Shown here one piece after another: positions 43,621 through 50,401 of a stretch of 64,000 nt of DNA. Numbering within the stretch: the first letter of the stretch is position 1; each line of letters begins with the position of its first letter. The notes beneath the pieces were generated by a model that was not told the DNA's origin, ran no database searches, and was given only the letters and a program-made list of their open reading frames with translations. Made by a program: the position numbers and the translations under genes. The stretch comes from Polyangiales bacterium (GTDB lineage Bacteria; Myxococcota_A; Polyangia; Polyangiales; JADJQN01): the NCBI GenBank assembly GCA_964202905.1, contig CAXNJO010000006.1, positions 256,001-320,000 of the forward strand, read 5' to 3'.

Positions 43621-45672
43621 CTAGCGCTCTGTGGCGTCGGTCGGGAGGCGCACGGAGAAGGTCGTCCCGACGCCCTCGAGCGTGCTGACCTCGATGTGTC
43701 CGCCGACGGCCGCGACGATGCGCTGCGAGATCGCGAGGCCGAGCCCCGTGCCGTGATCCTTGGTCGTCACGAAGGGCACGAAGAGGTTGGCGAGCACCTT
43801 CTGCGGGATGCCGGGGCCGGTGTCCTCGACGCGCACCTCGACGAAGGTGCGGCGCTGCCCGGTCGCGTCCTCGCGCGCGCGCAGCCCGGACGCGACCACG
43901 AGGCGCCCGCCGCTGCCCATCGCCTGGAGCGCGTTCTGCACGAGGTTGATGAGCACCTGACGGAGCTGCTCGACGTCGATGCGCGCCTGCGGGAGCCCCT
44001 CGGCGAGCGTGAGCTCCCAGGCGACGCCTGCCTCTTCGCACTCGGCGCCGAGCAGCTGCATCGAGCGGCGCACCGCCGCGTTCACGTCGATGGGTGCGGT
44101 GTCGCCGCGCGAGGGGCGGGCGTAGTCGAGGAAGGAGGCGACGACGCGGTTCAGGCGATCGACCTCCTCGACGATGATGCCGAGGAACTCGCCGCCGCCC
44201 GGCACGGCGTCTCCGGGTTCCTCCGCGAGGTACTGCGCGCTCGCCTTGATCGCGCCGAGCGGGTTGCGGATCTCGTGCGCGAGGCCGGCCGCCATCTCGC
44301 CGAGCGCGGCGAGGCGGTCGCGCTCCTTGAGCTGCTGGTAGACGCGTGAGTTCTGCACGGCGGTCGCGGCCTGCGCCGCGAGCCCCTTGAGCAGTTGCAC
44401 CTCCTCGGGCGCGAACGCGTCGCGCAGCCGCTCGTCGCGCACGCAGAGCAGGCCGTAGACCCCGTCGTCCCCGCGGAGTGCAGCGCAGACCGAGGCGTGC
44501 GTCGCGGCGAGCGTCGCGAGGATCTCCGCGAGCGCGCCCGCCTCCCGCGCCTCACCGAGCTCGCGCCGCTCCTCGAGCTCGCGCTCGAGCGCCTCGAGCA
44601 CGAGCGCGTCGTCCTTGCGCAGCCGCTCGAGAAACGGCCCCGACGGCGCGAGCTCGAGGTGGCCCATCGGCCGCGGCCCGTGGAAGCCAGCGAGCGCGAA
44701 GCCGCGCCCCGTGTCGTCGAGGAGGTAGAGCGAGGCGTGCGTCGCGCGCCGCGATTGCTCGAGCCCCGCGATGACCACGCGCGCGACGTCGTCGGTCTCG
44801 AGCACGCGCGCGAGGCGGGCGCGCAGCTCGCCGATCGTGCGCTCGAGGTCGTGCCGCTGCCGGAAGAAGAACTGCGAGATCTGCGCCTCGACCTTGGTGC
44901 GCACGGGGTCGAAGAGCAGGAGCACGACGAGCGCGGCGACGACCGAATGGAGGAAGAAGCGCCCGCTCGAGAACAGCACGAGCACCCAGAAGATCGACGC
45001 GAGCGTGAAAGCGACCGCCGTCATCACCGTGAGGCGCCCCGCGAGCTCGTAGAGGTCGAGGAGGCGCGAGCGGACGATCGATTGCGAGAGCACGTAGAGG
45101 AAGACCAGCGTCAGCACCGTCCCGACGGGCGGGATGTCGAGGCCGACGTAGGGCAGGTAGTCGAGGATCGTGAACGTCGCGGCGAGCGCGCCGACCAGCG
45201 TCAGATACGTCCCGCGCGCCCGGTCGAAGCGCGAGCCCTCCGCGCGCGCGCGCCCACCCATCATCAGGAGCGACGCGCCGAGCACGATCACGACGAAGAC
45301 GAAGATCGACGCGCGCACGACGATGTGCGCGTAGGCGGGCGTGAGGATGACGGCGGTGAGCGCGCCGCCCGCGAGCAGCGAGGCGCGCGGGAGGAGGGTC
45401 GCGTGCCGCGGATCGCCCGCGACGAAGGCCCGGAAGAACTGCACCGCCGTGACCGGGAGCAGCACGGCGCAGGTGAGGTTGACGCGCCCCCACGTCCCGA
45501 CGTCGCCGGCGACGGCCGCGAGGAAGGCCGTGAGGTACCAGGCCCCGACCGTCGCGGCGAAGAGCGCGAACAGCCAGTGCACGCGGCGCTTGCGCGAGCG
45601 CAGCCCGACCGACGCTGCGATGGCGACGCTGAGCACGGCCGCGATCAGCGAGGTCTGGGTGCGCAGATCCAC
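43621..45672 (-). CDS. Sensor histidine kinase (multi-TM N-terminus, GAF, HisKA, HATPase)
   Basis: AHEIRNPL, NLVQNA, EDTGPGI, GTGLGL; many TM segments. Confidence 0.94.
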   Translation of the reverse strand: MDLRTQTSLIAAVLSVAIAASVGLRSRKRRVHWLFALFAATVGAWYLTAFLAAVAGDVGTWGRVNLTCAVLLPVTAVQFFRAFVAGDPRHATLLPRASLLAGGALTAVILTPAYAHIVVRASIFVFVVIVLGASLLMMGGRARAEGSRFDRARGTYLTLVGALAATFTILDYLPYVGLDIPPVGTVLTLVFLYVLSQSIVRSRLLDLYELAGRLTVMTAVAFTLASIFWVLVLFSSGRFFLHSVVAALVVLLLFDPVRTKVEAQISQFFFRQRHDLERTIGELRARLARVLETDDVARVVIAGLEQSRRATHASLYLLDDTGRGFALAGFHGPRPMGHLELAPSGPFLERLRKDDALVLEALERELEERRELGEAREAGALAEILATLAATHASVCAALRGDDGVYGLLCVRDERLRDAFAPEEVQLLKGLAAQAATAVQNSRVYQQLKERDRLAALGEMAAGLAHEIRNPLGAIKASAQYLAEEPGDAVPGGGEFLGIIVEEVDRLNRVVASFLDYARPSRGDTAPIDVNAAVRRSMQLLGAECEEAGVAWELTLAEGLPQARIDVEQLRQVLINLVQNALQAMGSGGRLVVASGLRAREDATGQRRTFVEVRVEDTGPGIPQKVLANLFVPFVTTKDHGTGLGLAISQRIVAAVGGHIEVSTLEGVGTTFSVRLPTDATER

Positions 45673-45762
45673 GGGGCCCCGCCGAGTGTGCGGGACGCCG
45701 CGTGCCGCGACCAGCGGCGCGCGCGGCGTGGCGACGCGCATCGTGGGCGTGTCGGGGTGGTC

Positions 45763-49500: not shown

Positions 49501-50401
49501 CGAGCGCGCTCGCGGCCGGGGTGAGCCCCGCGAGCCAGCGCCCGAGGCGCGCCTCGCGCGTGGGCGGCTCGGCGTCGAGCAGCCGCTCGATCGCCTCCGG
49601 CAGGCCGCCCGTGCGGCGCAGCACGCGCTGCACGGTGTCGGCGGATTGCAGCAAGGCGCGGACGCCTTCCGCGTCGAGCGGCCCGACCGGGACGCGGGTC
49701 GCCGCGGCGTGACCGAGCAGCCGCGCGAGCAGCTCCGCCGAGCCGTCGTCGCGGGCCGCGCGCTCGTCGCACGGCGCGCGCACGCTCCCGAGAAACAGGG
49801 CGCGCAGCCCACCGCGCGACTCGCCTTCGTGCTCGCCGAGCGGCGCCGCGGTGTCGAGCAGGAAGGCGAGCAGCGAGAGCGTGCCGTGATCGGCGCGCTC
49901 GAGATCGCGGAGCACGACGACGGGGGGCCGCACGCGCGCGACGTCCCGGAGGAGTCCGCGGAGCGCGTCGAAGAAGCGGATGCGCGTCTCGAGCACGTCG
50001 GACTCCGACGCGGCGGCGCGTGGCGCGGGGGGCGCGGCCTCGCCGTGCCGCTCGTCGTGCTGGTGCCAGAGGCGGTGGCAGCCGTCGTGGCAGGCGAGGG
50101 CGTTCGCGTCGATCGAGGGTGTGACGCCGACCTCGCGGAGGAAGCGGAGCGCCTGTTCGACGATCTCCGCGAGCGGCCCGAAGGCGCGGCCCGGCTCGCA
50201 GCGTCCGTCGAGCACGACCCCGCCCTCGAGCCGGACGCGCATGCGGAACTCGTCGAGAATCCGAGCCTTGCCGACGCCGCTGCGCCCCTGGAGCCAGGCG
50301 ACGCGCTCCCCGTGCTCGCGCGCCTCGCGGTACAGGCTGGCGAGACGTCCGAGCTCCGCTTCGCGACCGACGCAGGCGGAGGGCGATCCGTGCAGCTCCA
50401 T
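46526..50401 (-). CDS. Giant sigma54-dependent enhancer-binding protein: STAND-like AAA + TPR + sigma54 AAA+ + Fis HTH
   Basis: CVGREAEL..GRSGVGK, TPR array, GESGTGKE, SELFGHERGAFTGA, FLDEIG, WPGNVREL, GNITRAALLLG. GGAG RBS before ATG 50401; alternative start at 50503. Confidence 0.93.
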   Translation of the reverse strand: MELHGSPSACVGREAELGRLASLYREAREHGERVAWLQGRSGVGKARILDEFRMRVRLEGGVVLDGRCEPGRAFGPLAEIVEQALRFLREVGVTPSIDANALACHDGCHRLWHQHDERHGEAAPPAPRAAASESDVLETRIRFFDALRGLLRDVARVRPPVVVLRDLERADHGTLSLLAFLLDTAAPLGEHEGESRGGLRALFLGSVRAPCDERAARDDGSAELLARLLGHAAATRVPVGPLDAEGVRALLQSADTVQRVLRRTGGLPEAIERLLDAEPPTREARLGRWLAGLTPAASALVEALSVLRGPSDFDRLTRVCGAEVDAAARAAFVRAEPDRTEPLRRTIVDGALLFDFAQEADRDACAAQLQAPRLRALHARCADTLALEGDAQEAAHHALSAGDVARAIPLALRAAQSLAARHAHAEAAALLERVLGEALDAPHAGTPNEAALALREPLADLYRLTGDYPRALRHATHARDAAPGDPTAARRVGDLLTLSGMLEEAARTLEEARRLADASGDPLQAAEVEAALGELHYQRAAYADAASWAERARHAADALGALPLSLSARNTLGKVALAQRHPQSAAALFDENRTRAHAAGLPRQEAQALTNLGVAMLRTQDLVGAEANFTRAIEVAGAASDTRERAIATENLAVLAHLRHDYARAQRHYNDAVALLKRLGNRAMLARVANNLGELYLSIGDRDRARTLCEFASHVGGAALPPPITAEGLLLRGRVEAAHGHVGAARAAFEAAHRTFERLGMARAADALLELARMALVDGDVDAARALLERVPPPESPKRRAELAIVRDDVARAAGDDTLATSRAAAGLAEQCGDDALHAAALARLARASADRGDLVDAMGAVELAREAEARLAARVPEDARALFAERPERRELALVEGLVASSFDRARPARSRPGSAPPAGPAPVDGTTARLDAWRARYPDLVGRSAPLQQVLSLLDRVAPSDAIVLIRGESGTGKELVAEALHRHSPRRERPFVKVNCAALVETLLLSELFGHERGAFTGASARRKGRFEIADGGTIFLDEIGDISLKTQVALLRVLQEREFERVGGTTPIKVDVRILCATHRDLERMVREGAFREDLYYRLRGVTIEVPALRGRREDLPLLCAHLLGRIAAERREPAKSLAPDALRLLATHAWPGNVRELDNVLRSATLFADDSTLGAKDFSAFAATFRGGDPEPEVAVTPEPPPAAATAAPESEIALAYRRIRGGDVSLFEMKKALERECIVRALEETSGNITRAALLLGMKRPRLSQLVKQYELAADAGDAADVGEA

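Follow-up and report, generated by a model that had tools for sequence, protein, structure and literature searches.

Does an activator that has no receiver domain take its signal from a peptide encoded by the gene next to it? This question is raised by a locus in a stretch of 64,000 nucleotides from a Polyangiales bacterium (assembly GCA_964202905.1, contig CAXNJO010000006.1, positions 256,001 to 320,000), which we call the window and in whose coordinates positions are given. Three co-oriented genes are present there on the minus strand: a sigma54 activator with an array of tetratricopeptide repeats (TPRs), a lipoprotein carrying a short proline-rich repeat, and a membrane histidine kinase. 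An earlier interpretation made from the letters of the window (hereafter the sequence-only reading) had noticed these genes and their common orientation, and had seen that the activator stop codon shares the ATGA at 46526-46529 with the lipoprotein start codon; both observations held. Our analysis suggests that activator and lipoprotein form a genuine pair of genes for a peptide and its receptor, one that is widespread and, it appears, unstudied. The host genome is 5.68 Mb in size and 94% complete. The closest named relatives are metagenome-assembled genomes of Sandaracinaceae and Polyangiales, and a homologue of the activator is recorded by NCBI in Sandaracinus amylolyticus, a cultured host.

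The activator had been described as a long TPR array joined to a sigma54 activator with no receiver. Pfam agreed with this description: AAA_16, TPR_12/TPR_MalT, Sigma54_activat and HTH_8 were matched, and Response_reg gave no match at E 0.01. What had been overlooked was the STAND-type nucleoside triphosphatase (NTPase) domain at the N-terminus (Table 1).

The activator and the lipoprotein as a conserved unit

Activators were gathered from genome searches and from a scan of species genomes, made non-redundant, and kept when they had a closed open reading frame (ORF), a helix-turn-helix (HTH) signature of the R-P-R-L-S type and at least 150 nt of downstream DNA. The first count started from 200 loci, of which 87 were removed (47 duplicates, 34 open ORFs and 6 without the signature) and one more was too short; an ORF with a lipobox stood directly behind the activator in 110 of the other 112. 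The wider count gave 130 of 134, with an offset of -4 in 96, and all 31 activators of a later set had such an ORF behind them. Among the four exceptions of the wider count, L269 has its lipoprotein 1.6 kb further on, and for L166, L176 and L265 the fetched DNA contains no lipoprotein. As a control, the same crude filter found a lipobox-like ORF behind 3 of 25 sigma54 activators in the window's own genome, and PxPxP in 1 of the 25, namely behind the activator of the window.

The lipoprotein profile gave 6 matches in 28 chosen genomes: five genomes with the activator, and G189 (99% complete), in which the activator was not found and an orphan lipoprotein (L238), its motif decayed to ETPQPT, adjoins the kinase. 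Paralogous pairs within one genome carry unlike peptides, and a paralogue clade with the peptide DPSPDPM keeps it in five genomes whose main pairs differ. One genome bears a tandem duplicate of the pair (L274), and another has three paralogous pairs (L366-L368), each with its own peptide; the activator is frameshifted at L034 and the lipoprotein at L189, both pairs being otherwise intact.

The sequence-only reading had named conservation of the gene pair across Myxococcota homologues as a point to check, and the counts bear it out. Judged by this gene order, activator and lipoprotein are one conserved unit, widespread over several branches of Myxococcota. No published description of the pair was found, as judged from titles and abstract openings, with most subscription papers and all supplements lying outside that survey.

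A heptamer in unlike carrier proteins

The signal of the lipoprotein ends in TGASC, and its lipobox cysteine (Cys49, 46385-46383 on the minus strand) does not vary in any of the 54 homologues aligned, and neither do Cys87 and Cys119. Because of this ending and the invariant cysteine, the signal is by motif of the lipoprotein type. An exported precursor with a signal peptide had been proposed; the export signal stands, and the precursor is a lipoprotein that has a folded domain and does not resemble the small propeptides of the Phr kind. AlphaFold2 (AF2) predicted order only at about mature residues 21-80, and complete homologues are about 98-339 aa long. For this domain there was no Pfam family and no usable Atlas match, and the best VIA-align Z was 3.9, which by itself does not establish a new fold; the profile relatives are unnamed or hypothetical.

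The three identical GDPSPQPS octapeptides noticed earlier in the exported protein were confirmed. In six frames of the entire genome, GDPSPQP occurs three times only, always in this lipoprotein, and the three copies differ in their DNA at three sites, all synonymous. Across homologues the conserved element is the heptamer x-P-x-P-x-P-x, present in 1 to 9 copies per protein and found on three kinds of carrier: the tail of the small Cys-Cys domain in the window clade, in another branch a larger and different domain, whose two conserved halves enclose the motif (for this domain we obtained a weak DUF4382-like lead, score 0.80), and short low-complexity lipoproteins in other branches. PxPxP was present in 108 of 119 complete lipoproteins; in the remaining 11 it is replaced by variants, among them GPTPQVP, EPAPTAA and GDPIPW.

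Among the repeat intervals, 36 were exact 7-mers. Precursors ended precisely at position 7 in 12 of 115 cases, representing about six lineages on the tree, and at +1 and +2 in one case each. Repeat copies within a protein showed 278 synonymous versus 16 non-synonymous codon differences, a contrast that is partly fixed by the search pattern. In these comparisons the heptamer behaves as an element under selection. In family f54 (L161-L175), a block of 3-9 copies is often flanked by basic RGK/ARxK, which are possible processing sites.

One groove residue follows the last residue of the heptamer

Activator residues are numbered from ATG 50401, although ATG 50503 is the probable start, and groove-facing positions were set by TPR register, not by coordinates. 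In 128 aligned TPRs, the groove residues E534, N570, K574, N611, N651 and N691 are each 91-98% conserved. A mutual-information scan over 119 pairs (9 of the 128 were left out as truncated or ambiguous, and 12 motifs were set by hand) pointed to residue 644 as the partner of heptamer position 7. In the all-clade set, Asn at position 7 went with Asp644 in 21 of 21 pairs and Ser with Glu644 in 21 of 25, the four misses being in other clades. Within the main clade, dereplicated at 95%, the agreement was complete (Ser-Glu 22/22, Asn-Asp 22/22; phi 1.0, n = 44 pairs), and the next-best activator column reached phi 0.67 against position 7 in these 44 pairs.

Position 7 changed 8 times on the tree (FastTree), and agreement was seen in 7 of 7 independent contrasts, all on branches with good support (sign test, p 0.016). 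Null traits with at least 7 changes gave a maximal phi of 0.79 for non-motif columns of the lipoprotein and of 0.82 for activator columns; those with fewer changes reached up to 0.89. Pairs not used for the rule agreed in 8 of 8 cases, five of them less than 85% identical to any earlier TPR, as did L034; some of these eight were later merged into the 44-pair set. The activators of L055 and L062 are identical at 1171 of 1250 residues and differ at 644, as do the two loci at position 7 of both repeats. A long acid with the short Ser and a short acid with the longer Asn would be the pattern expected of a direct contact.

That the repeats should co-vary with the TPR region had been put forward in the sequence-only reading, and between position 7 and residue 644 this was seen residue by residue. 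We regard this covariation as strong though indirect evidence for contact between the TPRs and the heptamer, and it appears highly probable that the TPR groove binds the heptapeptide directly. A complex prediction of TPR residues 439-899 with a 35-residue, one-repeat piece gave ipSAE 0.01 in both runs, a value for which controls were not folded and which, by the terms of the tool, speaks neither for nor against a contact.

Over all clades, position 7 was also associated with residues 607, 610 and 647, position 5 with 650, 687 and 688, position 3 with 690 and 730, and position 1 with 698 and 734, all these associations beyond 644 being confounded by descent. Their residue order suggests an antiparallel path, with the C-terminus of the heptapeptide near N570, K574 and N611. 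The DPSPDPM paralogue clade (L185, L186, L188-L190) has N570Q and N611G in its groove and Met at position 7.

The repeats might instead be no more than a proline-rich linker that is free of selection and belongs to an ordinary target lipoprotein, given that PxPxP is common, being present in 83 of the 433 crudely called lipoproteins of the genome. However, the stricter [DE]PxPxP is found in 5 of the 433, and the synonymous excess, the exact covariation with one TPR residue and the retention on different carriers all argue against a linker, which we find hardly credible.

The membrane kinase

The sequence-only reading had recognised the third gene as a histidine kinase with several transmembrane segments and a GAF domain, which Pfam supports, and had offered it as a third part of the system or as the peptide sensor. 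A membrane kinase that detects the peptide outside and relays the signal, whether to the activator or to a response regulator, would solve the problem of the two membranes. The kinase stands directly after the lipoprotein in the window, and by a hand count it does so in about 15 of the 97 loci whose downstream DNA is long enough. Its start is probably GTG 45672, 188 nt past the lipoprotein stop. No terminator or stable hairpin was found between the two genes, so that co-transcription of the kinase with the pair is possible at this locus. Short imperfect direct repeats of about 20 nt lie at 45760-45812, where no folding signal above shuffles was seen (z 0.39).

The distribution of the kinase argues otherwise. 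Its membrane region matches 99 of 301 phylum genomes. In genus g11, the kinase was found in 14 of 14 genomes, the activator in 0 of 14 and the lipoprotein in 0 of 8 searched; in family f33, the pair was found in 10 of 10 genomes fetched and the kinase, using the window kinase as query, in 0 of 27. Around 40 kinase-anchored loci, the pair was directly upstream in 5, divergent in 1, replaced by an orphan lipoprotein in 1 and absent in 33, and in the same-genus genome G001 no kinase was present within 4.4 kb after the activator. The lipoprotein that adjoins a kinase in G189 is the one with the decayed motif and no activator found.

Nor does the kinase follow the peptide: the best of its membrane and GAF columns gave phi 0.66 against position 7 in 44 genomes, and residue 644 tracked it in 37 of 37 readable ones. 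(A first test on 15 genomes was uninformative, with many columns at phi 1, and was redone on the 44.) The activator, moreover, has no receiver through which a kinase might act. In other lineages, a regulator with a receiver (REC) and a sigma54 domain lies directly after the kinase in 5 of 7 loci inspected, and its best match in the window's genome is G000:C1:147604-148794 (L396, minus strand), at 55-65% identity versus 44-51% for the next. Because its orthologues follow the kinase in those lineages, this gene is likely the cognate NtrC-type REC-sigma54 response regulator of the window kinase. From the distributions in g11 and f33, the lack of covariation and the regulator located elsewhere, we judged the kinase to be a syntenic neighbour and not a dedicated part of the peptide unit; a kinase that senses the peptide seems very improbable.

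Promoter and possible targets

Upstream of the activator lie a sigma54-like promoter and an imperfect palindrome (Table 1). Strict GG-N10-GC sites were found in 19 of 40 main-clade upstream regions versus 0.6 in shuffled ones, with 0 on the reverse strand and 0 in coding DNA. The palindrome was found in 27 of the 40 regions versus 0.36 in shuffles, the pattern having been derived from the same 40, and in 0 of 37 regions of other clades. Both elements recur before paralogues L191-L193, which were not used to derive the palindrome. On the simplest reading, these data suggest that the main-clade activator autoregulates its own operon, the palindrome being its presumed binding site; another enhancer-binding protein could use the site instead. 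The window promoter may be weak, with CG in place of the -24 GG.

No further conserved target was found, and the other matches to enhancer plus promoter head unrelated genes. A PilZ gene (G000:C1:800204-800698; L395:1205-1699, minus strand) was rejected as a target, the palindrome being upstream in 2 of 15 orthologues. This gene has a sigma54 promoter in 14 of 15 orthologues, with a different, GACA-N4-TGTC-like palindrome (by eye), and it occurs in 14 of 15 searched genomes with a main-clade activator and in 0 of 9 without.

How the heptapeptide may reach the activator

A cytoplasmic groove tied to an exported motif implies that the motif either meets the activator before export or returns after it. 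We lean, if only by a modest measure, toward return, that is, toward a two-gene circuit in which the heptapeptide is released, re-imported free and read by the TPR activator. The lipoprotein would be the precursor from which the heptapeptide DPSPQPS is made: once the protein has been exported and lipidated, its repeats would be excised, probably with a free C-terminus at position 7, and the freed heptapeptide would enter the cytoplasm by a peptide transporter and lie along the TPR groove. Once bound there, it would control the sigma54 AAA+ domain, a release from autoinhibition being the likeliest way. In the window clade the activator would drive its own operon, which is feedback, and each activator would read the peptide variant of the adjoining gene. 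A free, re-imported heptamer is favoured because the unit ends sharply at its C-terminus, occurs in exact tandems and exists in many variants, and because paralogues form pairs of their own; processing, import, the sign of the effect and action between cells are what we infer beyond these. Two genes for Opp/Dpp-type binding proteins (SBP_bac_5) are present in the genome. SbmA/BacA, considered as an importer of a proline-rich peptide, was not found in the host genome.

Several observations weigh against this circuit. The neighbourhood of the pair holds no conserved gene for a dedicated protease or transporter, the residues past position 7 share no common cleavage motif, and most precursors have a tail there. 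Anchored in a membrane and bearing a folded domain, the lipoprotein would be an expensive precursor for a peptide; in one branch the single motif lies between the two conserved halves of the larger domain. The grooves of L166, L176 and L265 are intact even though these activators have no lipoprotein in the DNA fetched. Position 7 is the only heptamer position that passed the tree-aware test; in the main clade, position 3 against N690 gave phi 0.86 with 4 changes, which is not significant, and positions 1 and 5 had no clean partner. Finally, the -24 element of the window itself is degenerate, and in three other clades the search for an upstream sigma54 promoter gave 0 in 19 loci, 0 in 23 and 1 in 13.

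If the motif meets the activator before export, the pair could be an export monitor: the TPRs would bind the motif of the unexported precursor, or cytoplasmic breakdown products, and would report the state of Sec or of lipoprotein maturation inside one cell, from which no signal would go out. Such a monitor accounts equally for all of the covariation between position 7 and residue 644; it fits the translational coupling (the -4 offset in 96 of the 134) and the invariant lipobox, and, requiring no dedicated genes, it fits the lack of conserved transporter or protease neighbours. A generic monitor, however, does not explain why there are many variants, or why a genome may have as many as three paralogous pairs with unlike peptides, and stops at position 7 and exact 7-mer tandems suit an excised unit. 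We consider it rather unlikely.

The motif could also return without any dedicated release. The lipoprotein would stay in the envelope until proteolysis there, under stress, predation or lysis of a neighbour, freed the repeats, and a protease-resistant proline core would be recycled to the cytoplasm and read by the activator as a sign of damage or turnover. Proline-rich peptides resist general peptidases. The same contact between TPR and heptamer would be used, the membrane anchor would have a reason, and no dedicated protease would be required, in agreement with the variable flanks. But no conserved stress regulon was found, the extra enhancer-plus-promoter sites in other genomes heading unrelated genes, and we hold a turnover signal to be distinctly improbable.

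Returning to the circuit with a free heptapeptide, its widest form would be a family of cell-to-cell signals in Gram-negatives, in which heptapeptides released from lipoproteins pass through both membranes to switch activators of the STAND-TPR-sigma54 type, with dozens of variants specific to lineages and paralogues and a readable groove code (position 7 by 607/610/644/647). This we put forward tentatively, with a little more doubt than belief. The pair is found in several branches of Myxococcota, which are social predators with signals known only in part. Because the data already name the ligand, its pocket and a swap of specificity by one residue (E644D, matched by Ser to Asn), binding, orthogonality and the route of the peptide could be tested with synthetic heptamers, and natural pairs of peptide and activator with a sigma54 output could serve as inducible switches. 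Even on the rival readings, the pair would represent a novel type of monitor for export or for the envelope.

Features of the locus and neighbouring genes

Table 1. Coordinates of the features discussed, by gene, with the evidence for each.
Feature	Position	Strand	Evidence or remark
Candidate enhancer, imperfect palindrome CGTCA-N6-GCACG	50606..50621	-	pattern found by eye
Sigma54 (-24/-12)-like promoter GCGCACGCGGCTTGCA, CG for -24 GG	50518..50533	-	fails strict GG-N10-GC rule
Activator gene: STAND-like NTPase, TPR superhelix, sigma54 AAA+, Fis HTH	46526..50503	-	Pfam, AF2, promoter-based start
STAND-type (AAA_16) NTPase domain, Walker A GRSGVGKA	49847..50374	-	PF13191 E 4e-25
TPR array, about residues 404-907	47681..49192	-	conservation; fold matching peptide-binding TPRs
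Glu644, co-varying with heptamer position 7	48470..48472	-	covariation
Sigma54 AAA+ domain and HTH, family signature KRPRLSQ	46595..47578	-	PF00158 E 1e-71, PF02954
Lipoprotein precursor, 222 aa: signal II, small Cys87-Cys119 domain, disordered repeat tail	45861..46529	-	alignment, AF2
Repeat 1, GDPSPQPS (core heptamer DPSPQPS)	46008..46031	-	sequence
Repeat 2, GDPSPQPS	45936..45959	-	sequence
Repeat 3, GDPSPQPS, then 9-residue tail	45891..45914	-	sequence
Membrane histidine kinase (multi-transmembrane, GAF, HisKA, HATPase_c)	43621..45672	-	Pfam

The activator probably starts at ATG 50503 rather than at 50401, given the position of the promoter and the HLRLL-like motif at the N-terminus of homologues; the start codons of homologues lie 2-6 nt past the predicted +1 (read by eye). 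The probable N-terminus (50470-50503, minus strand) reads MPAPSHLRLL, its H-L-R-L-L/V motif is common to several homologues, and the leader is very short. We take this motif to resemble ClpX-binding tags of the LRVV type.

In the STAND domain, the Walker A Lys45 is kept in 79 of 87 homologues and the following Ser/Thr in 76 of 87 (Ala in the window protein), whereas the first acid of Walker B is kept in 13 of 87 and the second (D171) in 83 of 87; some branches of activators have no Walker A pattern at all. Because the lysine is kept, the first acid mostly lost and Walker A absent in some branches, the domain may be a conformational lock more than an ATPase. The STAND architecture was matched in its AAA_16-type P-loop, its helical and winged-helix modules and its superstructure-forming repeat sensor. 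The AF2 model of residues 1-930 had a local confidence (pLDDT) of 92, and its top Foldseek match was the TPR-STAND protein 6MFV.

The C-terminal part carries the hallmarks of a sigma54 enhancer-binding protein (GESGTGKE, GAFTGA, FLDEIGD and KRPRLSQ); GAFTGA lies at 47353-47336 and is present in 119 of 134 activators of the family, with GSFTGA in 7 of 134. The activator scored under every NCBIfam equivalog cut-off listed. A model with an amyloid motif, of the NLR-adjacent kind, was dropped by inspection only: the activator has one similar stretch, GDPEPE, in a linker.

Upstream of the activator, a gene at 50666-51868 (minus strand) encodes a glycosyltransferase of the MJ1255/VC2487 family; many relatives instead have there another sigma54 activator with the C-terminus MQ(V/I)HRWLKRY. 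Beyond it, at 51896-54372 (minus strand), a TIGR03805 parallel beta-helix protein adjoins a TIGR03806 diheme cytochrome c, both above cut-offs. On the far side of the kinase, an exported Cys-rich protein with many disintegrin-like repeats appears to be split among three overlapping ORFs (40671-43601, plus strand) with 46, 39 and 16 Cys; the two frame changes between them suggest frameshifts by assembly error or decay.

Relation to known systems

Imported peptides read by cytoplasmic TPR receptors are a paradigm of Firmicutes and phages. To our knowledge, there is no diderm counterpart and no sigma54 activator gated by a co-encoded peptide. The sequence-only reading had proposed a circuit like those of the RRNPP family; the TPR receptor, the exported peptide gene downstream and the covariation fit that proposal, and the size and kind of the precursor do not. 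For RRNPP systems, export, re-import by Opp, binding of an extended peptide and a key Asn have been described (PMC3601992). The pair resembles Rap/Phr, NprR/NprX, PlcR/PapR and AimR/AimP in its cytoplasmic TPRs, groove Asn, exported precursor downstream and short peptide, and in an apparent pair-specific co-evolution of peptide and groove, seen here by sequence comparison. It differs in its diderm host, in a precursor that is a lipoprotein of about 98-339 aa instead of a propeptide of 39-57 aa, in a receptor with an N-terminal STAND domain and a C-terminal sigma54 AAA+/HTH, and in a peptide with alternating prolines.

Rap-peptide structures were the top VIA-align rows (Z 27.5, rmsd (root-mean-square deviation) 5.3, 347 aligned, 12% identity). 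Rap-peptide, NprR, LGN, APPBP2 and MalT domain III, however, tied for the TPR part at Z 26-27.5 and 12-18% identity; APC5 tied in Z as well, and the matches to Rap and NprR covered Z 25-27.5. Such equal Z across TPR families shows a superhelix of the peptide-binding type and speaks neither for nor against descent from the RRNPP TPRs. The best natural sequence matches of the TPRs were Pins, kinesin light chain and LGN (among the best 60 of 183).

MalT/LAL proteins, AfsR and 6MFV share with the activator an AAA_16-type NTPase followed by a MalT-like TPR sensor; MalT domain III aligned with rmsd 3.4 and Z 26.1, and AfsR and MalT were also sequence matches. Their output is a LuxR or SARP HTH (MalT/LAL and AfsR), whereas here it is a sigma54 AAA+ with HTH_8; in comparison with MalT/LAL, Walker B is degenerate here and the ligand is apparently a co-encoded peptide. 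The ligand of MalT is a sugar. With NtrC, NifA, PspF and RtcR the activator shares a GAFTGA AAA+, a Fis-type HTH, a candidate upstream palindrome and a -24/-12-like promoter, but its regulatory region is STAND-TPR, not REC, GAF, PAS or CARF. We know of no peptide-gated sigma54 enhancer-binding protein.

Two further comparisons concern the export side and the kinase. In SitA of Myxococcus, which is passed on by outer membrane exchange, the C-terminal cargo of a lipoprotein acts in the cytoplasm (PMC8546572); it is likewise a myxobacterial lipoprotein, with an enzyme as cargo where here there would be a 7-residue motif. Outer membrane exchange was considered as the route; no TraB scored above cut-off in the genome, which is 94% complete (best 164 versus 700 bits; TraA was not searched). 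The kinase resembles PrsK of the PEP-CTERM system PrsK/PrsR in combining several transmembrane segments, GAF and HisKA and in being paired, in other lineages, with a sigma54 response regulator; it differs in scoring 115.6 bits with TIGR02916 against a cut-off of 300, over residues 263-700 only. Taken together, the best reading of the pair is an RRNPP-like logic built from other parts.

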